Positions 1 through 49,958 of a stretch of 64,000 nt of DNA are shown here, piece after piece. The first letter of the stretch is position 1, and every line of letters begins with the position of its first letter. Source of the stretch: a virus (Duplodnaviria > Heunggongvirae > Uroviricota > Caudoviricetes); the IMG/VR virus record IMGVR_UViG_3300028888_000043, positions 137,756 to 201,755 of that record. The stretch is one strand, 5' to 3'. The translations under genes and the position numbers were made by a program. The notes under the pieces were generated by a model that was given only the letters and a program-made list of their open reading frames with translations, was not told the origin of the DNA and did not search any database.

Positions 1-495
1 ATCAACTACATCCTTGATTTGAGGAATGTCAATTAAATCATAGACACCAGGTTCAAGACCATATCTTACAGCAGGTGTAACATCACCTACTCCTGTTGCT
101 GTAACCCCAACACCATGAAGTCTTCCATCATATTCATAAGACTGGTCATTTGCTGTAACAGTAAGGTCAGCGCCTGTGATTCTCCAAGTCTCCGACAATG
201 TTCCAGTGTAATTACCTATACCTGTTGCAATAACAGTTGCAGTACCCACATTGGTATTGTTCAAATATGACAATGTATAATCTTCTCCCTCTACAAGTTC
301 AACATCAACTCCATCAAAATTTGTAGTTACAACAGGTTTCGCCTCTATTGCCGAGCCGGTATATGTGGTGTTTTCAGGTTTAGAAATAGATCCAAGAGCA
401 ACAGCAGTGACTGTCAATTGCTTGGCATCACTCTCACTATCATAGGTAGATGTTATGTTCGTTGTACCTACTTTAATACCTTTTATTATACTCAT
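1..495 (-). CDS. Ig-like/MBG-type repeat fibre protein, partial (runs off the window start); N-terminus is the second half of a Big_2-like Ig domain
   Basis: Not in the ORF track. ATG at 495 gives MSIIKGIKVGTTNITSTYDSESDAKQLTVTA...TYTGSAIEAKPVV...EGEDYTLSYLNNTNVGTATVIATGIGNYTG, open to base 1. TATAAATA lies upstream at 516-523 (-). Confidence 0.8.
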   Translation of the reverse strand, partial: MSIIKGIKVGTTNITSTYDSESDAKQLTVTAVALGSISKPENTTYTGSAIEAKPVVTTNFDGVDVELVEGEDYTLSYLNNTNVGTATVIATGIGNYTGTLSETWRITGADLTVTANDQSYEYDGRLHGVGVTATGVGDVTPAVRYGLEPGVYDLIDIPQIKDVVD

Positions 496-523
496 TTTTG
501 TAACTTTATCTTAATTATTTATA

Positions 524-561
524 TTCATCTTCCACATCCTTGATTGGATGTGGAAGATGAA
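524..561. terminator. 16-bp perfect hairpin between fibre genes
   Basis: TTCATCTTCCACATCC-ttgatt-GGATGTGGAAGATGAA, just 3' of the 572 stop codon; no clear U-tract. Confidence 0.55.
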
Positions 562-571
562 ATATGTTTAA

Positions 572-3500
572 TTATTTTGTTATAGTAACAATTCCTGTTG
601 GATTAGTGCTATAAGATGTACCTGAATCAGATGTTACATCTATTGGTTGTCCATATTTAAATGTTGCTACAACTGTTGCAGTTGTTGTACCATTGTAACT
701 AATAGTTGAAGCACCAAGTGTTAATGAGATACCTGTAAGAACCTGTGCATCAACTACAACACTGATTGACTTGGTAGTAGTCGCCTGATTGTAATTAGTT
801 GTTGCCGGTGCAGTAGCAGTTACATTGATATTATATGTATTGGCAGCAGTACCACTTGGAACAGTAATCTTCTTACCATCTGATGAAATACTCCAACCAC
901 TCTTATCAATACTATAAGTTATGGTTACACCTGTATTTGTACTACTTGATGCAGATGCAGTTGCAATTGTAATTTCTCTATCACCCTGCATAGTTGAAGT
1001 TGCAGTAGGATTAGTTGTACAAGGTTCTGTCACACTGGTAACTGGTGAGTATGAAACTGTACCAGTACCCTTTGCAATTGTAAGTGTTGCAGATGCAGTA
1101 TATGCAGCATAGTTGTTAGTGGCTGCCACAGATGCAGTAACTGTAACTGTTCCAGCCTGTGTTGGAGTAACAACACCTGAACTGTTTACAGTTGCCTTAC
1201 CTGTTCCATTTGTAACACTCCATGTAATTGTTCCACTTTCTGTATTACCAGATACAGATGCTGTGACAGTATTAGGATATGCTATACTTGTAACAGTAGT
1301 TGAACCACTCTTGAAAGTAACAGCGCCAGAACGGGAAGCCTTGTTAATTGTAGCAGAGCCAACATATGTATATGTTCCTACTGTAGGCACATTATTATTC
1401 TCGTGGTTACTATCAGGTGAGAACTTATAATAGATATAATATGTACCCGCATTGGTTGCAGTCAATGGAGTAGTATTTGCACCACCCGCAGTAATCTGAC
1501 TATCTGCTGTTGCCTGGGAATCCTTTCTATAACCAAGATAATATGTACCAACACCCTCAAGTCCACTTGCAGTAGCAATGTTCTTGGCTGAACCATTGTA
1601 TGTCAAACTTGATCCAGGTGTAACAGTCATCCTTGCATCATCAGACTTGTAAACTGTAAGAGTTACTGTTGATGACCAACCAGTATTACTGTGGTTGGCA
1701 TCACCAACAACCATACACTGAACCGCAGTTGTACCTATGGCAGTTCTTGTAGGTGCAGTTGTTGTCTCTGTCCAACTTGTACCATTGTTGGCATCATATC
1801 TATATTTGAGTGTACCACCAGAATAACCTGTTGCAGTAAGGGTTGCAGTATTGTGATATTCCTTTGAGTCACCAGACCAGGTTGTAGGAAGTGTTGCAGA
1901 TGCCTGACCAATTGTTGCAGTAAGGGTATTCTTGGTGTTGATACCTGTACCTGAATTGTTATTAGTATCTTCAACAAGGCAATACCAGTAAATTGTGTAT
2001 GTACCAGCGGCTGACTTCTGTGTATAAGGTATTGTAGTACTCCAATTAGAATTTGACTTATCAAAGTTAATATTGGATGAACTGTAATACATCACACCAC
2101 CAGTAGTAGCAGAACCTGCTGTGAAGATGGTCTGATTGGAACCTGTGTATGTCCTGTCAGTCTTTGTAGGAGCTGTGATGGTCACTGTCCTCTTGGCAAT
2201 AGTCACTGTACCAATATACTTTGCATCAACAGCATTGTAGTTGGTAGCAGCATCTGCCTTCATCCACACATAGTATGTACCTGCATTGGTTGCAGAAAGT
2301 GCAGTGTTCTTTGAACCCCAAGATGTTGGAGCGGAAGTGGTAGAACTTCCAAGGCCAAAGTAGTAGTCACCTGAATTGGTTGACTTAGTAGCGATGGTCT
2401 GAGCTGCACCATTATATGTCCTGTTTGTTGTAGATGCTGTGGCATAACCAGTAGCCTTACTAATGGCAAATGTTACAGAATCTGCATAATCATTGTAATT
2501 GGTATCACCTGTAATCTTATAATAGATTGTTGTTGAAGCAGTGTAATCAGTTGCTGTCTTCAAAGCATATACTGTATTGACCGCACCATTACTTGTAACA
2601 GTTGTGCCATAAGAAGTACTTGTACCACTCACAATGGTCTTACCTGTCCATCCTGCACTTGTTACTTTTACAGAACTTGAATGTGAAGAACCATCATATG
2701 CTCCACTGTAATTTACTTCTGTTACAGCAAGATTTGCCTTATTGACAACCTTGGCTGTTGTGGATGCAACTGATGAATCAGAATAGTTGGTAGTATCAGA
2801 TGGTCTGAAGAATGCATAGATAGTCTTTGTTCCAACAGATGTCTGACCCATACTTGTCATATTGGCGGCAGTTGTAGCACCGGCAGCTACAGACATAGTA
2901 TAAGTTGTAGCACCGGAAGTAGCACCATAATAGATTGTACCAGCAGGGTTACCACTTACATTGGCAGCCTTGGCATAAACTGTACCTCCATCATAGGTTG
3001 TCTTTGAACCAGCGGTGAGTGCAGGTGCAGTTGTGGCCTTCTTACCGATAGTTGCTGTCAAAGCAGTTGCAGTATTGATACCAGTACCTGTATTATTAGC
3101 TGTGTCAGCAACATAGCAATACCAGTAGATTGTATAATCACCAGCATTGGTCTTCTTTGTATAAGGAAGTGATGTACTCCAGGATGATGTACTGAATGTT
3201 GTATTTGATGTGTTGTAATACATTGTACCACCTGTGGATGCAGAACCAGCAGCAAAGATAACTTGTTCAGAGCCACTGTATGTCCTGTCAGTCTTTGTTG
3301 GTGCTGTGATTGTAACTGTCCTCTTGGCAATGGTTACTGTACCAACATATTTGGCAGACACAGCAGCATAATTGGTTGAAGTATCTGCCTTCATCCAGAC
3401 ATAGTATGTACCTGCATTCATCTGACTCAAAGCAGTGTTCTTTGAACCCCAGGATGAAGGGGCTGATGTAGTTGAAGAACCAAGACCAAAGTAGTAGTCA

Positions 3501-6500
3501 CCTGAATTGGTGGCTGCTGTTGCAATAGTCTGGTTAGAACCATTATATGTTCTGTCTGTTGTAGATGCTGTTGCATAACCAGTAGCCTTATTAGTAATTT
3601 CTACCTTGGTTGTGGCATTACCAGAATCCTCATAGTTTGTGGTATCTGTTGGTCTGAAGAATACATAAATTGTTGTTGTACCAACATTTGCCCTACCCAT
3701 ACTTGACAAGTTAGCTGCTGTTGTAGCTCCGGCAGCAACACTCAAACTATAAGATGTAGAACCAGCAGATGTACCATAGTAGATTGTACCAGCAGGGTTA
3801 CCACTTGCATTGGCAGCCTTGGCATAATAGGTTGTACCTGTGTATGTTGAATTTCCGCCAGCTGTGAGTGTAGGAGAAGATGTACTCTTCTTTGCTATTG
3901 TAGCTTGGATAGACTTCTTTGTATTGATGTCAGTACCTGTATTATTGGCGGTATCAGCAACATAGCAATAGTAGTACAAGGTATATGTACCCGCATTAGT
4001 CTGTGAAGCATTAGGAATTGTAGTACTCCAAGTTGAAGTGCTGAATGAAGTATCTGATGCACTATAATACATTGTACCTCCAGTAGTTGCAGAACCAGCA
4101 GAGAAGATGGTCTGGGCAGAACCATTATATGTCTTGTTTGTCTTTGTAGGTGCTGTAATAGTAACAGTTCTCTTGGCAATGGTTACTGTATCAATGTACT
4201 TGGCAGATACAGCATTGTAATTGGTTGAAGCATCCGCTTTCATCCAAACATAGTATGTTCCTGCTGCTGTCTGACTCAAAGCAGTGTTCTTTGAACCCCA
4301 GGATGTCGGAGCAGAAGTAGCTGAACTTCCAAGACCAAAGTAATAGTCACCTGAATTGGTTGACTTGGTAGCAATGGTCTGGGCGGAACCATTATATGTC
4401 TTGTTGGATGTTGATGCTGTGGCATAACCTGTGGCCTTGTTGGTAACAGATGCTGTTGTGGAAGCAACTGATGAGTCAGAATAGTTAGCTGTATCTGTTG
4501 GTCTGAAGAATGCATAGATATTTGTTGTACCAACATCAGTCCTACCCATACTGGTCAAGTTAGTGGCAGTTGATGAAGCTGTTATACTATAAGTTGTAGC
4601 ACCAGAAGTAGCACCATAGTAGATTGTACCAGCAGGATTACCACTACCATTCTTTGCAGTTGCATATACAGGATTACCATCATAGGTTGTCTTTGTACCA
4701 GCTGTGAGTGTAGGAGCTGCTGTGGACTTCTTACTTATTGTTGCCTGGATTGACTTCTTTGTATTGATGTCAGTACCTGTATTATTGGCGGTATCGGCAA
4801 CATAACAATAGTAATACAATGTGTATGTTCCAGCATTTGTCTGCGAAGCATTAGGAATTGTGGTTGACCAAGTTGATGTACTGAATGTTGTATCTGATGC
4901 ACTGTAATACATTGTACCACCAGTAGTAGCAGAACCAGCAGAGAAGATTGTTTGTGCAGAACCACTATATGTCCTGTCAGTCTTTGTAGGTGCAGTGACA
5001 GTCACTGTTCTCTTGGCAATGGTTACAGTAGCAATATACTTGGCCGCCACAGCATTGTAGTTAGTTGAGGCATCTGCCTTCATCCACACATAGTATGTTC
5101 CTGCCGCTGTCTGACTCAAAGCAGTATTCTTTGTACCCCAAGATGTAGGTGCTGATGTGATTGAAGAACCAAGACCAAAGTAATAATCACCTGAATTGGT
5201 GGCCACTGTTGCAATGGTCTGTGCTGAACCATTATATGTCTTGTTGGCTGTTGATGCTGTTGCAAAACCAGTGGCCTTGTTGGTAACAGATGCAGTTGTT
5301 GAAGCAACAGATGAATCAGCATAGTTGGTTGTATCTGTTGGTCTGAAGAATGCATAGATATTTGTTGTACCAACATCAGTCCTACCCATACTTGACATAT
5401 TGGCCGCTGTTGATGAAGCAGTCATACTATAAGTTGTAGCACCGGAAGTAGCACCATAGTAGATTGTACCAGCAGGGTTACCACTACCAGTAGCAGCCTT
5501 TGCATAGACAGCAGTACCATCATATGTTGCCTTTGTACCAGCAGTAAGTGATGGTGCTGTTGTAGCCTTCTTACTTATTGTTGCCTGAACAGACTTAATC
5601 GTATTGATGTTTGAACCAGTATTGTTGGTTGTGTCTGATACATATGCATAGTAATACAATGTATATGTTCCAGCTGTTGTCTGCTGTGGAGTTGGAATGG
5701 TAGTTGACCAGGTTGATGTACTGAATGTCTTGTTTGTGTCACTGAAATACATTGTACCACCAGTAGTACAAGAACCACCTGAGAAGATAGTCTGTGCAGA
5801 ACCAGTATATGTCCTGTTGGTTGCAGTTGGAGCAGTGACTGTAACTGTTCTCTGGGCAATTGCCTTTGTTCCACTCAATGCCTTTACTGTATTGATATTG
5901 GATCCAGTATTGTTACTTGTGTCAGCAACATAGCAATAATACCATACATAGTATGTTCCCTTACCTGTTGCTGTTGGATTACTTGTTGTCCAACCAGATC
6001 CAGGTGCAGAACCTGCTGTGACAGTAGGTGCTGTACTTGATGTAGAAATATAATAATACATCGTACCACCAGTAGTACAAGAACCTCCAGATGCAACAGT
6101 TTGAGCAGAACCATTATAAGTTAATGCACTTGATACATATGATGGTGCAGTAACTGTAACAGTCCTTTGAGCAATCTGCTTACCGGTACTGTTACCAATC
6201 TTTGGATTTACAGCAGTATAGTTTGTTCCTGCTGTTGCTTTGAGATGGACATAATATGTACCAGCATTAGTATATGTAATTTCTTTATTACTTGGTACGG
6301 CTGTCCATCCAGTAGCATTTGCGGCTGGAACAGTACTACTTGTAGATACTATATAATATGCCGTTCCATCACCATTATAAGAAACAGTACCCAACTTCTT
6401 AGCACTACCATCATATGTCAATGATGCAGAATTGACAGTAAATGTCAATGACGGAGCAATAGCACTGACAGTTATATTGGCAGTTGCGGTTTTACCACCA

Positions 6501-6553
6501 TATGAAGCGGTAATGGTTGTTGAACCGGCTTTTATACCTGTTATTGTAGCCAT
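572..6553 (-). CDS. giant Thr/Ser/Ala/Gly-rich Ig-like repeat fibre protein (1993 aa)
   Basis: Tandem ~90-aa beta-sandwich units (TYNGSAQT...AGTYYV), one intact Big_2-like domain (TITWSVTNGTGKATVNSSGVVTPTQAGTVTVTAS), and half-Ig segments at both termini. CATAAATA upstream. Confidence 0.85.
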   Translation of the reverse strand: MATITGIKAGSTTITASYGGKTATANITVSAIAPSLTFTVNSASLTYDGSAKKLGTVSYNGDGTAYYIVSTSSTVPAANATGWTAVPSNKEITYTNAGTYYVHLKATAGTNYTAVNPKIGNSTGKQIAQRTVTVTAPSYVSSALTYNGSAQTVASGGSCTTGGTMYYYISTSSTAPTVTAGSAPGSGWTTSNPTATGKGTYYVWYYCYVADTSNNTGSNINTVKALSGTKAIAQRTVTVTAPTATNRTYTGSAQTIFSGGSCTTGGTMYFSDTNKTFSTSTWSTTIPTPQQTTAGTYTLYYYAYVSDTTNNTGSNINTIKSVQATISKKATTAPSLTAGTKATYDGTAVYAKAATGSGNPAGTIYYGATSGATTYSMTASSTAANMSSMGRTDVGTTNIYAFFRPTDTTNYADSSVASTTASVTNKATGFATASTANKTYNGSAQTIATVATNSGDYYFGLGSSITSAPTSWGTKNTALSQTAAGTYYVWMKADASTNYNAVAAKYIATVTIAKRTVTVTAPTKTDRTYSGSAQTIFSAGSATTGGTMYYSASDTTFSTSTWSTTIPNASQTNAGTYTLYYYCYVADTANNTGTDINTKKSIQATISKKSTAAPTLTAGTKTTYDGNPVYATAKNGSGNPAGTIYYGATSGATTYSITASSTATNLTSMGRTDVGTTNIYAFFRPTDTANYSDSSVASTTASVTNKATGYATASTSNKTYNGSAQTIATKSTNSGDYYFGLGSSATSAPTSWGSKNTALSQTAAGTYYVWMKADASTNYNAVSAKYIDTVTIAKRTVTITAPTKTNKTYNGSAQTIFSAGSATTGGTMYYSASDTSFSTSTWSTTIPNASQTNAGTYTLYYYCYVADTANNTGTDINTKKSIQATIAKKSTSSPTLTAGGNSTYTGTTYYAKAANASGNPAGTIYYGTSAGSTSYSLSVAAGATTAANLSSMGRANVGTTTIYVFFRPTDTTNYEDSGNATTKVEITNKATGYATASTTDRTYNGSNQTIATAATNSGDYYFGLGSSTTSAPSSWGSKNTALSQMNAGTYYVWMKADTSTNYAAVSAKYVGTVTIAKRTVTITAPTKTDRTYSGSEQVIFAAGSASTGGTMYYNTSNTTFSTSSWSTSLPYTKKTNAGDYTIYWYCYVADTANNTGTGINTATALTATIGKKATTAPALTAGSKTTYDGGTVYAKAANVSGNPAGTIYYGATSGATTYTMSVAAGATTAANMTSMGQTSVGTKTIYAFFRPSDTTNYSDSSVASTTAKVVNKANLAVTEVNYSGAYDGSSHSSSVKVTSAGWTGKTIVSGTSTSYGTTVTSNGAVNTVYALKTATDYTASTTIYYKITGDTNYNDYADSVTFAISKATGYATASTTNRTYNGAAQTIATKSTNSGDYYFGLGSSTTSAPTSWGSKNTALSATNAGTYYVWMKADAATNYNAVDAKYIGTVTIAKRTVTITAPTKTDRTYTGSNQTIFTAGSATTGGVMYYSSSNINFDKSNSNWSTTIPYTQKSAAGTYTIYWYCLVEDTNNNSGTGINTKNTLTATIGQASATLPTTWSGDSKEYHNTATLTATGYSGGTLKYRYDANNGTSWTETTTAPTRTAIGTTAVQCMVVGDANHSNTGWSSTVTLTVYKSDDARMTVTPGSSLTYNGSAKNIATASGLEGVGTYYLGYRKDSQATADSQITAGGANTTPLTATNAGTYYIYYKFSPDSNHENNNVPTVGTYTYVGSATINKASRSGAVTFKSGSTTVTSIAYPNTVTASVSGNTESGTITWSVTNGTGKATVNSSGVVTPTQAGTVTVTASVAATNNYAAYTASATLTIAKGTGTVSYSPVTSVTEPCTTNPTATSTMQGDREITIATASASSSTNTGVTITYSIDKSGWSISSDGKKITVPSGTAANTYNINVTATAPATTNYNQATTTKSISVVVDAQVLTGISLTLGASTISYNGTTTATVVATFKYGQPIDVTSDSGTSYSTNPTGIVTITK
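2000..5870 (-). repeat. intragenic tandem repeat, ~840-bp (280-aa, three-domain A-B-C) period
   Basis: Near-identical DNA blocks. Shadow ORFs 4276..4536 and 5116..5376 are offset by exactly 840 nt. NSGDYYFGLGSS and NPAGTIYYG each recur four times. Boundaries are approximate. Confidence 0.9.
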
Positions 6554-6589
6554 ATATTTTTGTTATTTTTATATTTTATGTCTTTATGT

Positions 6590-6597
6590 TATTTATG
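6590..6597 (-). promoter_or_regulatory. T4-like late promoter CATAAATA (representative of ~17 copies, see findings)
   Basis: TATTTATG on the + strand upstream of the 6553 start; resembles the T4 gp55 consensus TATAAATA. Confidence 0.75.
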
Positions 6598-6630
6598 GAT
6601 AATTTCTTTAATCCACATTATTAAAATTCT

Positions 6631-9600
6631 TTATTTTGTAACTGTAACAACTCCTGTTGGACTGGTTGAATAAGTAGTACCAGAATTACCTGATACATCA
6701 AGAGTTGACCCAGATGTATATGTGGCAGTTGCAGTACAAGTAGTTGTTCCATTATAATTGATTGTATTTGAACCAACCGCCAGGGCCAGAGCAGTGACTG
6801 CATTGGCAGCCTGCTTGCAAGAAGTACAAGTATAAGCAGTAGAAGACTTACCATTCAATGTAACAGTTACAGTCAGATTACTCTTGGCATCCCTGGCATC
6901 TCCTACCGTTGTAGTTCTACTTGCCCAGGTGGTACTTCCAGATGTGGAATAGTTGGATGCCACACTGAACCCGGATGGCAATGTACCTGTGGTGGCATAT
7001 GCAAGTGTTCCACCTGATGTGACAGTCCCGCCTGTTCCTGAAACACCATTCCAGGTATAAGTCTGACTATATGTCACAGTTGGAGACTTGGTAGCACCAC
7101 CAGCAGCAAAGTCAGCATAACTGAATCCTGTGATGGATGGATTAGCATAAACCATCGCGCCGGCAGACTGGGAACAGGCAGTACAAGTGTAAGCACTTGA
7201 TGTGAGTCCACCAACAGTAACTGTCACTTTGAGATTACTCTTTGCATCCCTTGTTGATGTAGATATGTTATTTGCCCAAGTAACACTACCTGTTGTAGAA
7301 AAATTACTACCTACACTGAATCCCGATGGTAATGTACCAGTTGTTGAGTAAGCAAGTGTACCACCTGTATTAGATGTCCTGGTTCCTGAACCAGCAACAC
7401 CATTCCAGGCATAATCCTGATAATATGTTACAGTAGGTGTCTTGGTTGCACCACTGGCTGCAAATGTGTCATATGTGAATCCAGATATGACAGGATTCAA
7501 ATATGCCTGAGATCCAGCAGACTGATTGAATGTTACTGTAAAATTCTTTACAATATTTGCATTACCTGTACATTTCAACAATACCTTGAATCCATTTCTG
7601 GCAGAGGTTGATTCATTGTTTGTAACGGTTACAACATGTGTAGATGTGTCAAGTGAATAACCAGTCTTTGCAGTTGAAACACTATATACAACACTGTTCG
7701 ACAAATCTACTGTTTGAGCAACATAACCAGATGTATATTCTTGTTTCTGTGTCACAGCTGCAACTATTGTATATGTCTGTCCAGCAGCTGCCAAAGATAT
7801 GGTTTTTGATGTTCCTGTTCCAGGTTGAGTATAAACTGGATTTTTCCAAGACAAACTGTTTGTAGTTACATCTTGTGCAGTTGCAGTCTTTGATGTAGAA
7901 TTAATATTATATGCAGTAACAACAACAGTATCTGTGGTGGCATTATTGGTCATACTATCATGATATACGTCAGTTCCACTATTATAAACAGTTCCTACAC
8001 CACTCAATGATACTCCACCACTACTCGGATGTGAAAATCTATTGTTTCCATTACTTGTTATCTTCCATCTGGCAGTTCCAGCAGCAGATGAATCTGATGA
8101 TGTTGAAGCACCGGAAGTATAAGTTGTTGTAGTTGTCACCGTATTTGTTACAGTACAAGTAACTGTTGCATGACCACCAGATGCCCATATACCTGAACCA
8201 ATTTCAACAGTAGGTGTACCATATGAAGTTGATGTACTTGTTGATGAAGTGTTTGAAATAGATTCAGTATCTGTTGCAGTTTTTGATGAATCACCATCAT
8301 TAACAGCAGTAACCTTCACATAATCTGTACCGGCATTTGTACCCATTGTAGAATGAGACAATGTATTACTTGACTTACTGAATCTTGTAATGGTTGATGC
8401 ACTACCACCAGATGGTGTAAATGTCTGTGTGGTGATAGACCAACTTACTGAACCGGCAGTAGAACTTGACTGCTGGGAACTATATGTACCATTTGTATAT
8501 TTCCAATACCAAGTTGTTGTAGTATTAGGTACAGAACATGAAACAGTTGCAGAACCTCCGCCGGCAGTCAAACCACTACCAATTGAAACCGTTGGAGTTC
8601 CATATGTTACATTTGTTCCCGTTGTTCCGGAAGTATTCTTGTACTTTGTTGGATTTGAATTGTTTGGATACTTAGTTACAGCAACAATGGTAACTGTTAT
8701 CTGATTGTCTGAAGATATTCCTGTATTATGTGTTGAGTTGGAAGCACTTATTGTGCCACTAACCTCAAGTTCATATGTACCTGCTGATAAACCATTTGGT
8801 ATTGTTAATTTTTTACCATCAGATGAAACAGTCCAATTCTTATTATTTTCTGAATATGTAATTGTCAATCCAGATGATGTTGATCCACCAGAACTTATTG
8901 TAATCTGCTGACTTCCTTCTGTGGTACTCGCTTCATGGTTTGATGTAGTACAATATACAGTATATGAAGAACTTGTTGTAGAATAATTAACTATTGGTTC
9001 CCATCTTGCATATATTGTCATTGAACTTGTAGGTGCAGACCTAACACTTGAACCAGAGGCATTCAAATATTTAGTACCTCCAGAATAATTTGAAGTGTCC
9101 CAGAATCCAAGTAATTGAAATCCAGTTCTTGATGGTACAGATGAAATAGACCAAGAAGATGCACCCGGGGCAACAGATTTTGAAGATGTACCACCACTAC
9201 CACCATTTCCATTAATAGTTACTGTTATATTTGAGGGTGCGGACATTTGTGCTGTTGCACTCAATGTACTTGAATTATTATATGAGTTTGTATTAGAAGG
9301 TACAAAATATGCATATATTGTTTTAGATCCAACAGATGTTTGAGATGTTACATTTACCCATGTGTTAGCAGAACTAACAGTAACACTGTTTGTCATCGAT
9401 GAAGATGATGTTCCCCATTTGATTGTACCAGTAGTAGCAGCACGACCCTTGATATAAGCGGTCGTTGGTGATGTGGTTGTCTCACCAGTCAATTCAAATC
9501 CAGGATCATCTTTAAGGAATTCTCCTCTACTTACAACGACTTCACCTTCAGAATATCCAGAAGGTCCAGTAGTTAAACCACTACTATCTGTTCTAAAATA

Positions 9601-10344
9601 TATATATAGTGTTGTACTGCTTGTTACATCAATTGTTTTACTATCAGAAAAATTTGTACCAGAACCAGAAATCACATGACCAGCCCAAGCAGACATATTG
9701 TCAATTCTTGAACCACTTGAATAAGATTGTGTAAAAATGGCAATACCATCATAGTTGGCTTCGGATGTACCACTAATTGAAATTGAATAACGATAACCTG
9801 TATTTAAACCATATGTCACACATGTCCAGAGATTTGCTTGATCAACAGTTATGGTATAATATTTTGTAAATCCTGCTGTGGTTGTTTTCCAAGAATTGGT
9901 AGCAGGAACATGACCATATGTAGTTGGACCGCTAAACAGATATCCACTTACTTCATAGACATCGGATGCATAATATGTACCACCATTACCAATTATCTTT
10001 AGAGGGGTTGATACCGCATCTTCCCATACATTTGTCACATCTGAATAATTTGATGGTGATGATACATGTGCAGAAGATGAAGAATCTTGTAACCAACAAG
10101 ATGTTATGTTTGATGTTGTAATTCCAGCACCGGTCGTAAGCCACACGGCATACAAAGGATAATAGGTTTGTGTGGATCCTGTTCCTTGATATGCATATCC
10201 AACAAAGCCTATTGCCTGTGCGCTTGAAAATGATGAATGGTCAATCCATCTTGGACGAGAATTTGGCAAGGTTGATTCACCAGACAAACTACTATAATCA
10301 CCAAATGTATATTCAGTAGGTATCGCAACATATAAATTTGCCAT
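6631..10344 (-). CDS. Ig-like/Listeria-Bacteroides-repeat fibre or receptor-binding protein (1237 aa)
   Basis: Unique N-terminus, SEANYDGI beta-domain, InlB-B/Flg_new-like repeat (VPSRTGFQLLGFWD...IYARW), C-terminal half-Ig. CATAAATA at 10380-10387. Confidence 0.8.
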   Translation of the reverse strand: MANLYVAIPTEYTFGDYSSLSGESTLPNSRPRWIDHSSFSSAQAIGFVGYAYQGTGSTQTYYPLYAVWLTTGAGITTSNITSCWLQDSSSSAHVSSPSNYSDVTNVWEDAVSTPLKIIGNGGTYYASDVYEVSGYLFSGPTTYGHVPATNSWKTTTAGFTKYYTITVDQANLWTCVTYGLNTGYRYSISISGTSEANYDGIAIFTQSYSSGSRIDNMSAWAGHVISGSGTNFSDSKTIDVTSSTTLYIYFRTDSSGLTTGPSGYSEGEVVVSRGEFLKDDPGFELTGETTTSPTTAYIKGRAATTGTIKWGTSSSSMTNSVTVSSANTWVNVTSQTSVGSKTIYAYFVPSNTNSYNNSSTLSATAQMSAPSNITVTINGNGGSGGTSSKSVAPGASSWSISSVPSRTGFQLLGFWDTSNYSGGTKYLNASGSSVRSAPTSSMTIYARWEPIVNYSTTSSSYTVYCTTSNHEASTTEGSQQITISSGGSTSSGLTITYSENNKNWTVSSDGKKLTIPNGLSAGTYELEVSGTISASNSTHNTGISSDNQITVTIVAVTKYPNNSNPTKYKNTSGTTGTNVTYGTPTVSIGSGLTAGGGSATVSCSVPNTTTTWYWKYTNGTYSSQQSSSTAGSVSWSITTQTFTPSGGSASTITRFSKSSNTLSHSTMGTNAGTDYVKVTAVNDGDSSKTATDTESISNTSSTSTSTSYGTPTVEIGSGIWASGGHATVTCTVTNTVTTTTTYTSGASTSSDSSAAGTARWKITSNGNNRFSHPSSGGVSLSGVGTVYNSGTDVYHDSMTNNATTDTVVVTAYNINSTSKTATAQDVTTNSLSWKNPVYTQPGTGTSKTISLAAAGQTYTIVAAVTQKQEYTSGYVAQTVDLSNSVVYSVSTAKTGYSLDTSTHVVTVTNNESTSARNGFKVLLKCTGNANIVKNFTVTFNQSAGSQAYLNPVISGFTYDTFAASGATKTPTVTYYQDYAWNGVAGSGTRTSNTGGTLAYSTTGTLPSGFSVGSNFSTTGSVTWANNISTSTRDAKSNLKVTVTVGGLTSSAYTCTACSQSAGAMVYANPSITGFSYADFAAGGATKSPTVTYSQTYTWNGVSGTGGTVTSGGTLAYATTGTLPSGFSVASNYSTSGSTTWASRTTTVGDARDAKSNLTVTVTLNGKSSTAYTCTSCKQAANAVTALALAVGSNTINYNGTTTCTATATYTSGSTLDVSGNSGTTYSTSPTGVVTVTK

Positions 10345-10545
10345 TATAAACTATTATTTATTTTCATTCATATATAAATTATTTATGCCCTACATCCATT
10401 TCAAGATGTATTTTTGATATAAATTTGTAATGATTTAATAGATACAGACATATGCAACAGAACTTGGCCTTATATAAGACCAAGTTCTCTCCTGCTAAAA
10501 TATTAATATCATTGGCTACAGACTCTTCTGAAACAATAAATTGAT

Positions 10546-10767
10546 TTAAATATTACTGAGTCTTGACTCTACATTACCGATAATGTCATATACACATTTT
10601 GCTGATGGATAATGCTGGTCATCAGATTGTGCATTGATTGTTGTGACAAGTCCATCCGCTGACTGCAACTCACTCACTGCCTTTCCTCCAACCGTAACCG
10701 CATCAATAGGATGATTCTGACCATCACCCAAGTTGATATAAGAAATGGTTTCAATCTCGTTTGCCAT
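10546..10767 (-). CDS. small late protein with YPSAKCVYD tail-fibre-type motif
   Basis: 73-aa ORF with its own CATAAATA (10800-10807). Confidence 0.65.
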   Translation of the reverse strand: MANEIETISYINLGDGQNHPIDAVTVGGKAVSELQSADGLVTTINAQSDDQHYPSAKCVYDIIGNVESRLSNI

Positions 10768-10809
10768 AATATTGTTATTGTTTTTATATTCTATATATGT
10801 ATTTATGAC

Positions 10810-10838
10810 AAAGGGCTACCCATATGAGTAGTCCTTTT
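10810..10838. terminator. hairpin downstream of the 1249-aa fibre gene
   Basis: AAAGGGCTAC-ccatatga-GTAGTCCTTTT. Confidence 0.5.
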
Positions 10839-10857
10839 ATCATTTTGAAACATTTTA

Positions 10858-13800
10858 CTAAGATGTTTTGTCAATGGTTACAACACCTGTCGGATTATCT
10901 GAATATGTTGCATCTGCTGTCACATCCAGTGTCGCCCCGGATGAATAGGTTGCAGTTGTAACAAATGTGGTTGAACCATTATAACTTATGGTTGTAGATG
11001 CAACATTAAGTGCAAGAGATTCAACTGCATTGGCATTCTGCTTACCTTCCGATGCATAAGCGGCTGTTGATGATTTTCCATTCACAGTAGCAGTCACCAA
11101 GACTGCATTATAGAAATTCCTGGCACTGTCTGCAACTGTACCTCTTGAAGCAACATTTATCTTTCCAGTTGTGGCGAAATTGGTACCATTGGCTATAAAG
11201 GTATAACCATTTGCATTTCTTGTAAATGCCCAGGTTGTACTTGATGTCACTGTTTCTGTTCCACCAGAACCTGAAACACCATTCCAAGTATATGGTTGTG
11301 TACAAGTCAATGTAGATGGTGCCAAATCAACAGCGCCGGAAGCAGGGACCGATGTGGAATACTTGAATGTGACAGATGGAGTACCATAAACTTTCGCACC
11401 GGCAGACTGCAAGCAGGCAGTACAAGTATAGGCACTTGATGTGAGACTTCCAATGGTAACTGTCACTTTAAGATTACTCTTAGCATTCCTTGATGATGTA
11501 GTTGTGTTATTTGCCCAGGTAATATTACCAGTTGTTGCAAAATTGGTTCCAGTACTGAATCCGGAAGGTAATGTTCCAGTAGTTGAGAATGCCAATGTTC
11601 CACCAGTATTTGAAACAACTGTACCAGAACCAGCAACTCCATTCCAAGCATTCTGTTCCTGCTGATATGATACAGTAGGGGCACTGTTTGTCACACCAGT
11701 AGCACCAGCATTACTGTATGAATATCCAGTTATGACAGGATTCAGATTACCCTGTGAACCGGCAGGCTGGTCAAAATATTGATATCTTACTGTTGATTTA
11801 CTGTTCTTTGATGCAGTAATCTTAACTCTAAATCCATTCCTTGCAGATGTGGATGTATTGTTTGTAACAGTCACCTGATTTGATGAAAGTGAATAACCTG
11901 TCTTTGATGTGGCAACTGCATATGAGAAATCTGAACTTGACAATGTTACAGTTTGAAGTGTATATCCAGAAGCAAGTTTATAAATCTGTGTGGCAGCAGG
12001 TGTTATTGTATAAGTCTGGCCGGCAGCTGCCAAGGATACCCTTGAATTATTTGTCGGAGCAGAAAATACAGGGGCAGCCCACTCCGGGTCATTTGGTTCC
12101 TGATAACAGTTATCACAATAATATGCAGCTGATGTCTTACCATTCATAGAGACTTTTACATACAGGTGGTCTTCAGCATGCTTCTCAACACTTGTCTGTG
12201 TTGAACCCATATCTGCCCATGTACATCTACCTGTTGTTGAAAAATTACTCTCAAGACTGAATCCAGATGGAAGTGTACCTGTTGAATAAAAAGTAGGTGT
12301 TCCTCCTGATGTCAAAGTTGTTGTGGTTGAACCCGTATGTTTTACTTGGTAATATTCAACATAATCCGCTGCTCTTGTTTCTCCATAGGCATAAAACCAT
12401 GTATATTCATATCTTGTAACAACAGGTGTATCATAATATATTCCTACTTCCTGGTCAAATGTAACATTCTTTGTTCCACTCTTACCATTTGCAGTACAAG
12501 TTATCTTTACAACAAAATCACCCCTGACAGTTTCACCATCATTTGAAGTCACTGTTACTTTATTGGATGACAGTGAGAATCCAGTACAAGATGTAACCAC
12601 ACTATAACTATATGAACCGCCTGTTGTGATTGTTGATGAAGCACCATTATTCCAATATGCAGTCTGTGAAAAACTTGGAGACATTGTATAAGTCTGACCA
12701 CCACCATCAAGTCTGATAGGAGTGGTATGACTTACTATTGGATTACCATAACTTGAAATAGCATTGGAAGTAACAGATACATTGATGGTCACTTCTTTTG
12801 TTGTTCCAACATATGCATTTCCGGAAGAACCTCCAGATGGTGATGTTAATGTTACAATTACAGTATGTGATATATTACCAGCTACACCAGAAGGAACTGT
12901 CAAAGTTTTACCACTATTACTTAAAGTCCATTCTGATGTTGTTGCCGTAACAGTACCTCCAGAAGCACAACTGTATCCATTTGTTGAAACAGTGATAGCC
13001 TGTGAACTTTGAGTTGTTGTATGTGCAGAAGCACTACTTGAACAATATATAATAAATGTACTACCAGATACATAATTTATTGTATATGTAATATCATTCT
13101 CCCAATGAGCATAAAATGTTGTATTTGATGTATAATCAAATGAATGTACCCAAGAACCACTTGAATCTATATATTGAGTGCCACCAGAATATGCACTATA
13201 ATAACCCAAGAAAGTATATCCACTTCTTGAAGGTATTGATACTGTACCAGATGGTGTTGAATTTGGAGTTACACTCAATGATGATGTTCCTCCTGTACCT
13301 GACTGTTTGTTCAAGGTCAAGGTGACAGTAGTAACTGTCTCCTCAATAACCTCAAGGTCACCACTTGCAGTATTTGTACCTACACCACCGCTACCATCAG
13401 TATGTAAATAAATATACACTGTTCCATTTGATGAGGGAATATATGTATATGAACTACTTACATCATTACCTGAACAAGAAGCAAGTCTTCCAGAAAAAGA
13501 AGCATTTATATTTGTTACTGTTGAAGCAGCAACGGTATTTGTTGAAAGTACAATTCCATCATAGTTTGCCTCACTATATGTGTGCATATTAAATGTATAT
13601 TGTTTTCCGGAATATACACTCATAGTCACATATGAATGATTGGTTGTTGTGGATTTTGCAGTAAAAGCGTAATACTTGTTTCCATTATACTCATAACTTG
13701 TCCAAGTTCCCCAACCTTCACTGGCATGGTCATAAGTAAGACTGTAACTACCACTACTTGTACCTATCGCTGCCGCCCTTAAATTATATTCTGATGTACT

Positions 13801-14607
13801 CTGTGAAACATTATGTATTGCATATAGTTTACTTTGTGAACCATAAACATATGCACTTGTTCCCTGTGTTCCAGTGTCAAAATCATAAATACCTGTCAAT
13901 GTAGGAAATCCATATGTCCTTACATTTGAAACTGATGCAGTAATTGATGTGTTGGAATTGATAAGTCCAACACCAAGATTGGATGATGAATTTGCCCCAA
14001 GTTCAACAATTGTAACTCCTACACTACTATTACCACCAAGTAAAACATCATCCTTACAGTGTAAAGTTGATTCAGAATATAACTGATTGCTTGGTGAAGA
14101 TATTGTACCACTATATCTTCCACCATTTGATACATGTACCCAAATATCCTGATTATATGCATATTTTTCATCAATCTCAAACAAATATATAGTAACTGGT
14201 ACAGTATATCCAGAACCACTGGCTTGTGTATACATCTGGGCAGAATATGTATTACCAGAGTATTTCCAAGTGCAAGTCTGTGTTCCTATATATTCAGTAG
14301 GCGCTGACTTATGACTTGTACTATTATGTAACCAAACATTGGAATGATTACTATTTGCAAGTGATGTAAATTGACTTTTAGAAATATAACCACTATTTGA
14401 TGATGTAATTTCATACACCTCATAATAATGAGATGCAGTAGAACTTTCATCAAACAAACTGGCACATTGCTGATTTTTTCTTATCTGGGTATCGATAGTT
14501 GAATTATTCCTTGATAAATAATCGGCAGCATCTCCATTATATTCAAATGCTATTAATAGATTTGATGAACTCTCTATACCATAACCTTGTGCAAAATCCC
14601 AAGCCAT
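10858..14607 (-). CDS. Ig-like/Listeria-Bacteroides-repeat fibre or receptor-binding protein (1249 aa), paralog of 6631..10344
   Basis: Shares SEANYDGI, IPSRSGYTFLGYY...FYAHW, LAAAGQTYTI and WNGVAGSG...TTGTLPSGFS modules and the C-terminal half-Ig. CATAAATA at 14631-14638. Confidence 0.8.
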   Translation of the reverse strand: MAWDFAQGYGIESSSNLLIAFEYNGDAADYLSRNNSTIDTQIRKNQQCASLFDESSTASHYYEVYEITSSNSGYISKSQFTSLANSNHSNVWLHNSTSHKSAPTEYIGTQTCTWKYSGNTYSAQMYTQASGSGYTVPVTIYLFEIDEKYAYNQDIWVHVSNGGRYSGTISSPSNQLYSESTLHCKDDVLLGGNSSVGVTIVELGANSSSNLGVGLINSNTSITASVSNVRTYGFPTLTGIYDFDTGTQGTSAYVYGSQSKLYAIHNVSQSTSEYNLRAAAIGTSSGSYSLTYDHASEGWGTWTSYEYNGNKYYAFTAKSTTTNHSYVTMSVYSGKQYTFNMHTYSEANYDGIVLSTNTVAASTVTNINASFSGRLASCSGNDVSSSYTYIPSSNGTVYIYLHTDGSGGVGTNTASGDLEVIEETVTTVTLTLNKQSGTGGTSSLSVTPNSTPSGTVSIPSRSGYTFLGYYSAYSGGTQYIDSSGSWVHSFDYTSNTTFYAHWENDITYTINYVSGSTFIIYCSSSASAHTTTQSSQAITVSTNGYSCASGGTVTATTSEWTLSNSGKTLTVPSGVAGNISHTVIVTLTSPSGGSSGNAYVGTTKEVTINVSVTSNAISSYGNPIVSHTTPIRLDGGGQTYTMSPSFSQTAYWNNGASSTITTGGSYSYSVVTSCTGFSLSSNKVTVTSNDGETVRGDFVVKITCTANGKSGTKNVTFDQEVGIYYDTPVVTRYEYTWFYAYGETRAADYVEYYQVKHTGSTTTTLTSGGTPTFYSTGTLPSGFSLESNFSTTGRCTWADMGSTQTSVEKHAEDHLYVKVSMNGKTSAAYYCDNCYQEPNDPEWAAPVFSAPTNNSRVSLAAAGQTYTITPAATQIYKLASGYTLQTVTLSSSDFSYAVATSKTGYSLSSNQVTVTNNTSTSARNGFRVKITASKNSKSTVRYQYFDQPAGSQGNLNPVITGYSYSNAGATGVTNSAPTVSYQQEQNAWNGVAGSGTVVSNTGGTLAFSTTGTLPSGFSTGTNFATTGNITWANNTTTSSRNAKSNLKVTVTIGSLTSSAYTCTACLQSAGAKVYGTPSVTFKYSTSVPASGAVDLAPSTLTCTQPYTWNGVSGSGGTETVTSSTTWAFTRNANGYTFIANGTNFATTGKINVASRGTVADSARNFYNAVLVTATVNGKSSTAAYASEGKQNANAVESLALNVASTTISYNGSTTFVTTATYSSGATLDVTADATYSDNPTGVVTIDKTS

Positions 14608-14651
14608 TAATACATTAATTTATTATAATTTATTTATGGTAAAGGAATTGT

Positions 14652-14663
14652 TTGTTATTTTTA
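14652..14663 (+). promoter_or_regulatory. extended -10-type promoter TTGTTAT(A/T)TTTA (representative of ~10 copies)
   Basis: TG-T-TATTTT followed 6 nt later by the GroES ATG; the same motif precedes many non-virion genes. Confidence 0.65.
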
Positions 14664-14667
14664 TAGT

Positions 14668-14940
14668 ATGAATAATATACCCATTGAAATGAAGAATGGT
14701 TACATTCTTATCCAAGATATTAAGAATGAAACCATTACAGATGCAGGTCTGTACATACCTGATGAACAATACAACAGGTTTGCCAAGGTTCTGAAAACCT
14801 ATGACGGATCTAACCTAAAAGTGGGTGACATAGTTGTCAAACCCATAGGAAGATCAACCCCAATCAAGATTGACGGGGTGAAGTATGACTGCATAAAAGA
14901 ATCATTCATATTTGCAAAGATTGTAAATGATGAAAGTTAA
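14668..14940 (+). CDS. groES: GroES/Cpn10-like co-chaperonin
   Basis: ILIQ...ETITDAGLYIPD mobile loop, LKVGDIV, IKIDGVKY; 90 aa. Confidence 0.75.
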   Translation: MNNIPIEMKNGYILIQDIKNETITDAGLYIPDEQYNRFAKVLKTYDGSNLKVGDIVVKPIGRSTPIKIDGVKYDCIKESFIFAKIVNDES

Positions 14941-15190
14941 TTTCACAAAAGAAGATGTACAGTCATTCAGGGACATCATCAAGGAATACCAGGATGTCTC
15001 CGATGAACTGTCTTCATACCAGAAGAAAGCGGAAGACATACAAACCAAAATCATCAGCCTGGAAAAGAACCTGAAATCAATCAAGAACAAAGAAAACAAA
15101 CTGATGGAAGGTCTTCACAAGAAATATGGAGAGTTCGGTCTTCAAGACATTTATGAAAGTCTTCTTATGGATAACATCAAACAGCGATGA
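14927..15190 (+). CDS. hypothetical coiled-coil protein
   Basis: 87-aa ORF overlapping both neighbours; heptad-like pattern. Confidence 0.65.
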   Translation: MMKVNFTKEDVQSFRDIIKEYQDVSDELSSYQKKAEDIQTKIISLEKNLKSIKNKENKLMEGLHKKYGEFGLQDIYESLLMDNIKQR

Positions 15191-16311
15191 AAGAATCTGA
15201 AAACAATGTACTTGATGTCATCAAAGGTAAACTCCAGGTAATCCTGAACAGGTCATTCAAGGAATCTTACAGAAGGAAACTTGACATATACTCCGACAGG
15301 ATTAACATCTGCTGCCCTATCTGCGGTGACAGTGCGACAGACATAAGGAAGAAGAGGGGGAATCTATATCTCGATTCCCTCTCATATCATTGTTATAACT
15401 GCGGCGCCCATATGGGTATCAACTCTTTCCTTCACAGATTTGATGAAGACCTTTCCAGCGAGGACAAGATTGTAGTCCATGAAATCCAGCAGAACTCAAA
15501 GAAGTTTGAAAAGAAAGTGTCATCATCACAGGGGTCAATGTCAATGATTCTCCTTGACAAACTGGCAATTCCGAAGGACATCCTCTTCAAACAACTTGGG
15601 ATAACATCCCCATACAGAGATCAAACTGCAACCAAGTATCTCAAATCAAGGATGATAGACATCAAGGACTGGAAGTATTTTGGATACAATCCACTCTCCG
15701 CTGAACTCTACATACTGAACATATCTCCATCCAACAGGGTGATAGGTTATCAGATAAGACAGCTGGACCCCAACTCGGTGAAGAACAGGTATATGTCAAG
15801 GAGACTTACCAAGATTTATTCTGAAGTGTTTAACAAGAACATATCCTCCATTGTAGAGAGACTTCTTCTCCAAATGCCAAATGGAGACAAGTACATCACC
15901 GAGGAGGATGGTATAGAGAACATAGTGGCAAACCTGGACCGCCTGTCAGGTATCTTCAACATTATGAACATCAATATGGGAAGACCTCTCACCATTATGG
16001 AGGGTCCTATTGATTCACTTGCAGTTGACAACTCAATTGCCTTGCAGGGGGCATCCAAGCAGTTAGATGGGTTCTTTGACAATGTGGAGAATGTAAGATA
16101 CCTGTTCGACAATGACAAGACTGGAAAGGAGATGTCCTTGAAGAAACTGAAATCACACAAGACTGTGTTCCTATGGACACAATATATAGATATGATTCAC
16201 ACAAAGGAGAAGATAAAGGATGTGAATGACTTACAGAAGATGAACCTTTTCAACCAGGAGATACTGGAGAAATGCTTCTCTGATGATGAATTTGATGCAA
16301 TGTACATTTAA
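15187..16311 (+). CDS. DNA primase, T4 gp61-like
   Basis: Zn finger CPICGDS...YHCYNCG; TOPRIM motifs EGPIDS and FDND; KDVND. Confidence 0.9.
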   Translation: MKESENNVLDVIKGKLQVILNRSFKESYRRKLDIYSDRINICCPICGDSATDIRKKRGNLYLDSLSYHCYNCGAHMGINSFLHRFDEDLSSEDKIVVHEIQQNSKKFEKKVSSSQGSMSMILLDKLAIPKDILFKQLGITSPYRDQTATKYLKSRMIDIKDWKYFGYNPLSAELYILNISPSNRVIGYQIRQLDPNSVKNRYMSRRLTKIYSEVFNKNISSIVERLLLQMPNGDKYITEEDGIENIVANLDRLSGIFNIMNINMGRPLTIMEGPIDSLAVDNSIALQGASKQLDGFFDNVENVRYLFDNDKTGKEMSLKKLKSHKTVFLWTQYIDMIHTKEKIKDVNDLQKMNLFNQEILEKCFSDDEFDAMYI

Positions 16312-18962: not shown

Positions 18963-18994
18963 ATTCTCTTTACTTTAATATAGTTATTTATGGT

Positions 18995-49953: not shown

Positions 49954-49958
49954 GAAGT

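Follow-up and report, generated by a model that had tools for sequence, protein, structure and literature searches.

Split immunoglobulin-like half-domains at the ends of consecutive fibre genes of a large uncultured phage, predicted to link separately made fibre proteins

Fibre genes and their terminal half-domains

The window analysed here, a stretch of 64,000 nucleotides, covers bases 137756-201755 of a single IMG/VR virus record of 411,604 bp, which represents an uncultured phage and was estimated by CheckV to be 94% complete. Translation revealed four consecutive fibre genes on the minus strand of the window (P0003, P0002, P0001 and P0005), and the subject of this work is a pair of short segments at the ends of their products, which look like the two parts of one divided immunoglobulin-like (Ig-like) domain. 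P0003, P0002 and P0001 each finish in a segment of about 57 residues, here called the socket, and the sockets are approximately 45-63% identical among themselves; P0001 and P0005 open with a segment of 29 residues, here called the plug.

Two of the four proteins carry a socket only: P0002 (1237 residues; 6631..10344, minus strand, like the other features of the fibre genes given below), the putative tip protein, and P0003 (1249 residues; 10858..14607), which has a unique N-terminal region and is proposed as an alternative tip. The N-terminal regions of P0002 and P0003 are dissimilar, yet a 'SEANYDG' domain and a Listeria-Bacteroides-type repeat are common to both. P0001 (1993 residues; 572..6553), the putative extender, combines an N-terminal plug, about 20 Ig/MBG-like repeats and a C-terminal socket. 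P0005, the putative base, is 312 residues long in full (1..495, continuing outside the window) and consists of a plug, MBG/Ig-like domains and a small conserved C-terminal domain.

The sockets, which would comprise strands A to C' of an Ig domain, are located at 10861..11031 in P0003 (2e-27 at the protein end with a profile hidden Markov model (HMM), 1.6e-24 with the family HMM), at 6634..6804 in P0002 and at 575..745 in P0001, the last two identified by HMM and class comparison. The plugs, predicted to supply strands E, F and G, lie at 6467..6553 in P0001 (HMM matches) and at 409..495 in P0005, where four residues are invariant among homologues (see below). As described in the last section, the sockets of P0003 and P0002 and the plug of P0001 were assigned to a class I, and the socket of P0001 and the plug of P0005 to a class II. 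When the whole genome was searched in six frames, with HMMs of the halves and then with family alignments, exactly three C-terminal and two N-terminal halves were found, each at a protein end.

An earlier, sequence-only reading of this DNA had quoted the termini of the fibre proteins, and all of them are present as written in the translations. It had also stated that no donor gene follows the 1249-residue gene, and this agrees with the HMM searches, which detected no third donor in the genome. The next open reading frame (ORF), which codes for 73 residues (10546..10767, between the tip genes P0003 and P0002) and has its own CATAAATA motif at 10800-10807, is not a donor. It had no PHROG match and no family match, and its placement in the family of a 686-residue protein encoded downstream of P0005 was rejected, as no similarity was found.

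At the DNA level, the paralogous halves are 63-64% identical, with a longest identical run of 10 nt, and synonymous differences occur in 15 of 30 conserved codons. Because of this divergence and these synonymous differences, the halves are considered old copies, kept by selection at the protein level. The possibility that they serve as DNA homology cassettes for recombination was rejected in this genome, since no stretch of identity between the copies exceeds 10 consecutive bases.

Conservation of the split among relatives

Well over 100 homologues of P0005 were found, with a length of about 312-320 residues. Among 30 aligned homologues (45-79% identity), nearly all begin at Met1 with M-(S/A)-x-I-(K/T)-G-I-K-(V/A)-G; Met1 itself is nearly invariant (at least 90%), and G6, G10, Y18 and V29 are invariant. 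The corresponding loci were inspected in eight relatives (L003, L004 and L006-L011) from independent ENA, JGI and Logan assemblies. In all eight, the gene upstream of the P0005 homologue finishes in a socket, and the genes further upstream repeat the pattern of a socket at the end of one gene and a plug opening the next. Two of these loci (L006 and L007) contain a 1993-residue orthologue of P0001 with the same ends. In total 33 sockets were aligned, and all of them stop 0-4 residues past the same strand. The sequence-only reading had suggested conservation of the termini as a check, and in these loci and homologues the termini are conserved.

With the last 288 residues of P0002 as query, HMMER retrieved 177 matches from 1.84 billion representatives, and the best 150 of these matches were inspected. 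A socket was recognisable in 38 of these, within 6 residues of the C-terminus in 25 cases and near the end, followed by a diverged tail, in about ten; none of the 38 had a plug behind the socket. Among 120 longer homologues (547-2000 residues), eight plugs were all located at residue 1 and seven sockets all at the C-terminus. Neither these 120 homologues nor the 150 above, nor the eight loci, contained a fused form. The split pattern also occurs in about 40 diverged homologues, far beyond chance. The split is therefore confirmed to be old and conserved, and is not a recent break or an assembly error.

The relatives were found only in large protein collections. A megablast search of 15 kb against phage records gave no match, nor did tblastn with the P0002 C-terminus against curated phage collections; tblastn with P0005 against the same collections returned only four weak matches to MBG domains in human faecal phage contigs, and two pattern scans of viral contigs yielded no confirmed relative.

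Some relatives show additional arrangements around the socket. In P0159, P0252, P0255, P0128, L003:2205-3995 and L009:2-3976, the chain continues behind the socket with an unrelated domain of about 130 residues, which has the motifs ...SVDDF... and ...YYLWK...LLTSTI.Y.TL..., and a gene of 144-147 residues usually adjoins. If the socket in front of this domain stays open, the ratio of sockets to plugs in L009 is 3:3. Locus L011 harbors a free-standing 78-residue gene (L011:2108-2344), which consists of a socket from Met1 and a tail rich in Trp, Gly and Asp, and is located between a socket-ended gene of 2286 residues and a plug-started gene of 1090 residues. This free socket could act as a cap or competitor.

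The predicted joined fold and rival explanations

In locus L003 the gap at the junction between extender and base consists only of TAA plus 9 nt and is in frame, so that this junction can be read through unaltered. A model was built of this natural junction with the TAA read as Q (P0275), based on an alignment (A5) anchored by natural in-frame read-through rows. Two MAFFT alignments (A3 and A4) were discarded because they misplaced sockets onto plugs or MBG domains. MAFFT had set the sockets on the base protein's first MBG-type domain, pairing Y-N-G with Y-T-G and TATY.SG with VTA.V.G, and these similarities hint that the split domain may be a remote beta-sandwich relative of the MBG repeats.

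The AlphaFold2 model of the read-through reached a mean predicted local distance difference test score (pLDDT) of 80.7, with values of 81-98 over residues 101-200, from socket to plug. According to DSSP, the socket forms strands at 105-112, 116-118, 122-132, 137-139, 146-150 and 156-159, and the plug at 167-170, 174-184 and 187-198. Solved single Ig domains were superposed across the junction (model residues 103-200) with VIA-align. The best superposition was obtained with the Ig domain of the Mycobacteriophage Douge capsid protein (8zdk; Z 11.7, root-mean-square deviation (rmsd) 1.9 Å over 83 residues), followed by the terminal Big_2 domain of LigB (2mog; Z 10.2, 2.6 Å, 95 of 95 residues), the Big_2 domain of 7r3t (Z 10.1, 1.8 Å, 79 residues) and the C-terminal Ig domain of lambda gpV (7t4f; Z 9.8, 3.0 Å, 88 residues). 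Socket and plug are thus predicted by modelling to form one Ig fold of the Big_2 type, with the division falling in the loop that connects strands C' and E. When P0005 was folded alone, from an alignment of 30 homologues, its pLDDT was 89-98 except over its first 30 residues (52/73/75), which formed just a hairpin; in the read-through model, residues 171-200, which include most of the plug, reached 96/89/98. Since the read-through model is a single, covalently linked chain, it shows that the halves are compatible and does not show their assembly in trans.

Assembly in trans was addressed by a complex prediction from a socket alignment of 70 residues and a plug alignment of 45 residues. The score was 0.51 in three runs, compared to 0.00 for the best of three controls, which was classed as weak support. 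Of 80 solved complexes 58 attained the mark for this method, as did 2 of 110 mismatched pairs, counts that hold only roughly here because custom alignments were used; at 0.60 or under it was reached by only seven of the 80 solved complexes and by both passing mismatches. The runs agreed in at least 98% of contacts, with a pLDDT of at least 71 for the partner, and both chains reached a pLDDT of 71-76 together versus 40-57 with unrelated partners. Of the earlier claim that the subunits join by fold complementation, the part concerning one Ig fold is thus borne out by prediction, and the part concerning binding in trans receives weak computational support.

Profile searches gave a different picture. 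The earlier reading had proposed a comparison of the joined and the separate halves with the Big_2 HMM of Pfam (PF02368), and neither scored: no match at E <= 10 was found for either half or for the natural read-through (P0274). The Big_2 assignment accordingly stands by fold, through the superposition of the read-through model, and not by the Pfam HMM. The plug of P0001 gave sub-threshold Pfam matches, all on the last strands of five bacterial Ig families, including Big_1 (positions 64-92 of 93), Big_3 (47-68 of 68) and Invasin_D3 (65-96 of 98). P0001 also contains an internal, undivided Ig-like domain (1112..1321) that aligned to Big_2 with E = 0.014 and 0.011 over model positions 2-73 of 79. 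At 14-16 bits this is below the Pfam gathering cut-off of 22.8 bits, and the hhalign comparison of this domain with the socket and plug profiles, based on very shallow alignments, was not significant. For this reason the internal domain, which had been presented as the joined form of the halves, can be regarded only as an analogy.

The strongest rival explanation, which we nevertheless consider unlikely, is that socket and plug are independent elements, an autonomous C-terminal cap and an unrelated N-terminal leader, and that their resemblance to a divided Ig domain is a coincidence of beta-rich sequence. The silence of the Big_2 HMM and of hhalign would be expected in that case, beta-rich segments align loosely, as the MAFFT placements illustrate, and some relatives continue past the socket with a different domain. 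On the other hand, sockets and plugs co-occur at consecutive gene boundaries in all eight relatives, the read-through forms one complete Ig domain that superposes on solved domains at 1.8-2.6 Å, and the gain in pLDDT in the complex was seen with the cognate chains and not with unrelated partners.

The second rival explanation is recoding, in which ribosomal read-through, a hop or a shift across the gap would produce one covalent giant fibre, split at the DNA level only. This explanation draws on the short in-frame gap of L003, on a strong hairpin after the stop codon of junction II in the window and six relatives, and on the sequence ACA AAA, found at junction II of the window before the stop and again before the next ATG. 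It is attractive for L003 alone. At junction I, between P0002 and P0001, the genes are separated by 77 nt (6554..6630) and are not in the same frame; this gap contains CATAAATA at 6590-6597 as well as a short hairpin. At junction II, between P0001 and P0005, the gap of 76 nt (496..571) is likewise out of frame; a 16-bp hairpin occupies 524-561, and TATAAATA is located at 516-523. Among the relatives and the window the gaps range from 9 to 88 nt (41 to 88 nt outside L003) and are mostly out of frame, which argues against a common recoding event. An ATG is found exactly at the plug start in every junction examined, and Met1 is nearly invariant, as mentioned above. In-frame stops lie 3-5 codons upstream of the ATGs of P0001 and P0005, so the plug N-termini of these proteins cannot be extended. 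The last sense codons vary among relatives (Lys, Ser, Thr), so that there is no conserved matched pair of take-off and landing sites, and AAA before an ATG is typical of A-rich leaders. Bypassing in T4 gene 60 relies on matched take-off and landing codons and needs no start codon at the site where translation resumes; here, in contrast, each plug starts with an ATG, the last codons differ and the gaps vary from 9 to 88 nt.

The gaps also contain late-promoter motifs, a further point against recoding. A YATAAATA motif is located ahead of each fibre gene, and 22 copies are present in the window compared to 8.0 +/- 3.1 expected. The earlier statement that each gene has its own late promoter fits these motifs in the window but does not extend to the whole family, given the 9-nt in-frame gap in one relative. 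The hairpin of junction II, with a stem containing CACAT, is also found in L004, L006, L008, L009, L010 and L011, and is absent from L003. It follows the extender stop codon, lacks a T-run on the coding strand and has a promoter-like motif directly behind it; it may act in attenuation, in RNA stability or in some other way. Rfam searches of bases 1-15000 gave only chance-level miRNA matches on hairpins; the absence of any Rfam family beyond these implies that no known intron or recoding element is present. Altogether, we consider recoding highly improbable.

An equally improbable variant is that the joint turns covalent after assembly, through a spontaneous isopeptide or ester bond of the CnaB/SpyCatcher type or a DUF11-like one. 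Many sockets end in Lys, and the plugs carry Lys at positions 5 and 8, but many other sockets end in Ser or Thr, and no position with Lys, Asn/Asp or Glu is invariant across both halves. Big_2 domains are not known to form such bonds, which also counts against this variant. Finally, recent gene breakage or an assembly error in a fibre normally encoded by one or two giant ORFs has nothing in its favour except that the break falls inside a domain, and is practically negligible given the same break point in three paralogues, eight independent assemblies and dozens of homologues at 30-60% identity with no fused ORF, in line with the earlier view that this is not one broken gene.

Junction classes, the proposed chain and its meaning

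A comparison of 16 sockets and 14 plugs from the window and seven relatives' loci distinguished two junction classes. Class I joins a socket-only protein to the extender (plug MA-TITGIKAG...YGG, socket ATYTSG), and class II joins the extender to a base of the P0005 type (plug MS-IIKGIKVG, socket ATY(S/D/N)NG or FKYGQP). In most cases, a socket or plug had its closest counterpart in another genome within its own class. With 63% identity to the socket of P0002 and 45% to the socket of P0001, the socket of P0003 falls into class I. Since both sockets are of class I, P0002 and P0003 probably compete for the plug of P0001; the earlier idea that the 1237- and 1249-residue proteins are interchangeable tips fits this shared class, their role as tips being deduced. 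In every genome examined the extender combines a class II socket with a class I plug. This mismatch makes a self-polymerising P0001 unlikely and speaks against the corresponding proposal for the 1993-residue protein, in favour of an ordered chain.

Based on these data, the following mechanism is proposed. An ancestral fibre gene would have been divided within the coding region of a Big_2-type Ig domain, at the C'-E loop, and each fibre protein would be translated on its own. The 57-residue C-terminal socket (strands A to C') of one protein and the 29-residue plug (strands E, F and G) of the next would then co-fold into a single Ig domain, joining the proteins non-covalently, head to tail. The tip P0002, or alternatively P0003, would dock on the extender P0001 via class I, and P0001 on the base P0005 via class II. 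The chain would be held on the virion by the small C-terminal domain of P0005. The outcome would be a long virion fibre resembling beads on a string, with an order set by the two junction classes. We regard it as probable that separately made fibre segments are linked in this way, by non-covalent co-folding of split Ig domains, into an ordered chain of tip, extender and base. Binding in trans, the order of assembly, the use of alternative tips and the anchoring to the virion are the steps that we infer.

P0005 ends in a small conserved domain of four strands with a C-terminal motif of approximately K-x-N/S-x-x-W-x-P-V-x-K-V-Y-K-K-x-x-G-x-W. This motif recurs, with E-values of 1e-6 to 8e-5, in three plus-strand proteins outside the window (G000:C1:47390-48193, 48220-50604 and 50654-52540), at the C-termini of proteins of 795 and 629 residues and at the N-terminus of a 268-residue protein. 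Because of this recurrence, the domain may represent a shared virion-docking module. The chain of P0005, P0001 and P0002 comprises approximately 3,500 residues of Ig-like beads, which suggests a fibre length of well over 100 nm.

Several observations weigh against the proposed chain. The stoichiometry of the halves is uneven in this genome (three sockets versus two plugs), and only about 10-15 points of identity separate the two classes, which is too little to prove specificity. To these are added the lack of a Big_2 match for the halves and for the read-through, the covalent linkage in the read-through model and the weak pass of the trans-complex prediction. The domain of about 130 residues behind some sockets and the free 78-residue socket have no assigned place in the chain. 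In addition, Pfam gave no significant family for the whole fibre proteins, PHROGs no match for nine proteins of the fibre region, and a BFVD fold search with the P0005 model only generic tandem-Ig proteins (Hoc-like, BIG2-domain proteins and tail fibres), so the fibre may sit on the tail or on the head.

Other genes lie beside or near the fibre genes. A GT52-like glycosyltransferase (weak match) was annotated at 15187-16311 on the plus strand of the window, and two genes at 16770-21385 on the minus strand are reminiscent of a MoxR-type ATPase pair, as they carry a DUF2201_N metallopeptidase-like domain and, below threshold, an AAA_5 domain. The window further encodes a full-length Hsp70 (DnaK-like) protein at 34139-36022. 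Downstream of the base protein the gene order is conserved in all relatives' loci, and comprises, in succession, a protein of 114-239 residues ending in ...SDYD.IAE.V...LTW..I, a protein of 642-686 residues, a family-2 glycosyltransferase and giant proteins of 1700-2850 residues. In this genome the block is represented at G000:C1:136832-137311, just outside the window, and none of the proteins of the block had a PHROG match.

Fold completion between subunits is best known from chaperone-usher pili (Fim, Pap and Caf1) and from the type V pili of Bacteroidia, in which incomplete Ig-like subunits are completed by a neighbour. These pili are head-to-tail, non-covalent and very stable polymers with distinct tip, shaft and base subunits. 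In type V pili (FimA/Mfa1), an N-terminal strand is removed by proteolysis, after which a C-terminal strand is inserted. The fibre proteins described here share with them an incomplete Ig-like fold that is predicted to be completed by the neighbour, but several differences are evident. Chaperone-usher and type V pili donate one strand, depend on a dedicated chaperone and an outer-membrane usher or on proteolytic priming and have a shaft that self-polymerises, whereas here one third of the domain (three strands) would be donated and assembly would take place in the cytoplasm. The mismatch of classes also points to a defined chain and not to a polymer. The chaperone-usher systems donate a single G strand from an N-terminal extension, and the plug forms three strands in the model. 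Compared to type V pili the polarity is opposite, with an N-terminal plug entering a C-terminal socket. No chaperone or usher homologue was detected in Pfam and PHROGs scans of the scanned proteins, the locus not having been scanned exhaustively. The earlier likeness to donor-strand exchange thus remains valid for fold completion between subunits and not for the number of strands donated (E, F and G instead of one), and since three strands are donated the joint is better described as a co-folded split domain than as classical donor-strand exchange.

Full-text literature searches turned up no phage fibre described as a chain joined through split Ig domains, in agreement with the earlier statement that none was known for phage fibres. 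The closest solved precedent is a single joint, the composite Ig-like domain of BppU and BppA in the tripod of Lactococcus phage Tuc2009, where a C-terminal 25-residue beta-hairpin of BppU (residues 296-321) completes the sheet of the incomplete beta-sandwich of BppA domain 2 (PMC4742702). The composite resembles a titin Ig domain (Z 5.9, 1 Å over 56 residues), and the joint attaches an accessory carbohydrate-binding protein (PMC4742702). In the present system, likewise, a short element of one phage structural protein is predicted to complete the beta-sandwich of another. In Tuc2009 both elements are C-terminal, the joint is single, two strands are donated and no domain is cut at a gene boundary, whereas here three strands are predicted to pass from an N-terminus into the C-terminus encoded by the preceding gene, the same loop is cut in consecutive genes and a chain with two junction classes would result. 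The likeness considered here is one of architecture.

Other systems share single aspects of this organization. SpyTag/SpyCatcher is an engineered, covalent split of CnaB2, and phages such as CBA120, G7C and PhiK64-1 carry branched receptor-binding complexes held by conserved N-terminal docking modules. The latter also place exchangeable receptor-binding proteins on conserved adaptor modules, with alternative tips possible, but they do so with complete domains (T4 gp10-like and others), which belong to trimeric tailspikes, and not with half-domains. In RTX adhesins, an Ig-like domain is reported to be split in cis, with both segments in one polypeptide and a domain inserted between them (PMC10865825). 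The adhesins and SpyTag/SpyCatcher have in common with the present case that an Ig-like domain interrupted at a loop still folds from two segments; the split described here differs in being at once natural, located between polypeptides and presumably non-covalent.

Beyond this genome, it is conceivable, though we advance the idea only tentatively, that split Ig domains constitute a general plug-and-socket system of large phages, in which orthogonal classes programme the ordered cytoplasmic self-assembly of fibres of more than 100 nm, receptor-binding tips are swapped or used in parallel by gaining a gene with a matching socket, and half-domains offer themselves as orthogonal protein connectors for engineering. 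For annotation, a fibre gene whose product finishes in '...IVTI(S/T)K', next to one whose product opens with 'M(A/S)xI(T/K)GIK(A/V)G', should be read together with it as two parts of one structure and not as a truncated gene, and the short natural sequences of the half-domains could find use as orthogonal protein connectors. Should the joints function as predicted, they would extend fold completion between subunits from pili and the single Tuc2009 joint to a repeated, class-specific chain in which a full third of a domain is donated, and would account for the way in which very large phages assemble very long fibres of modular design out of several genes. They would also allow receptor-binding tips to be exchanged or multiplied with the rest of the fibre left untouched, which would bear directly on the host range of gut phages that have not yet been cultured.

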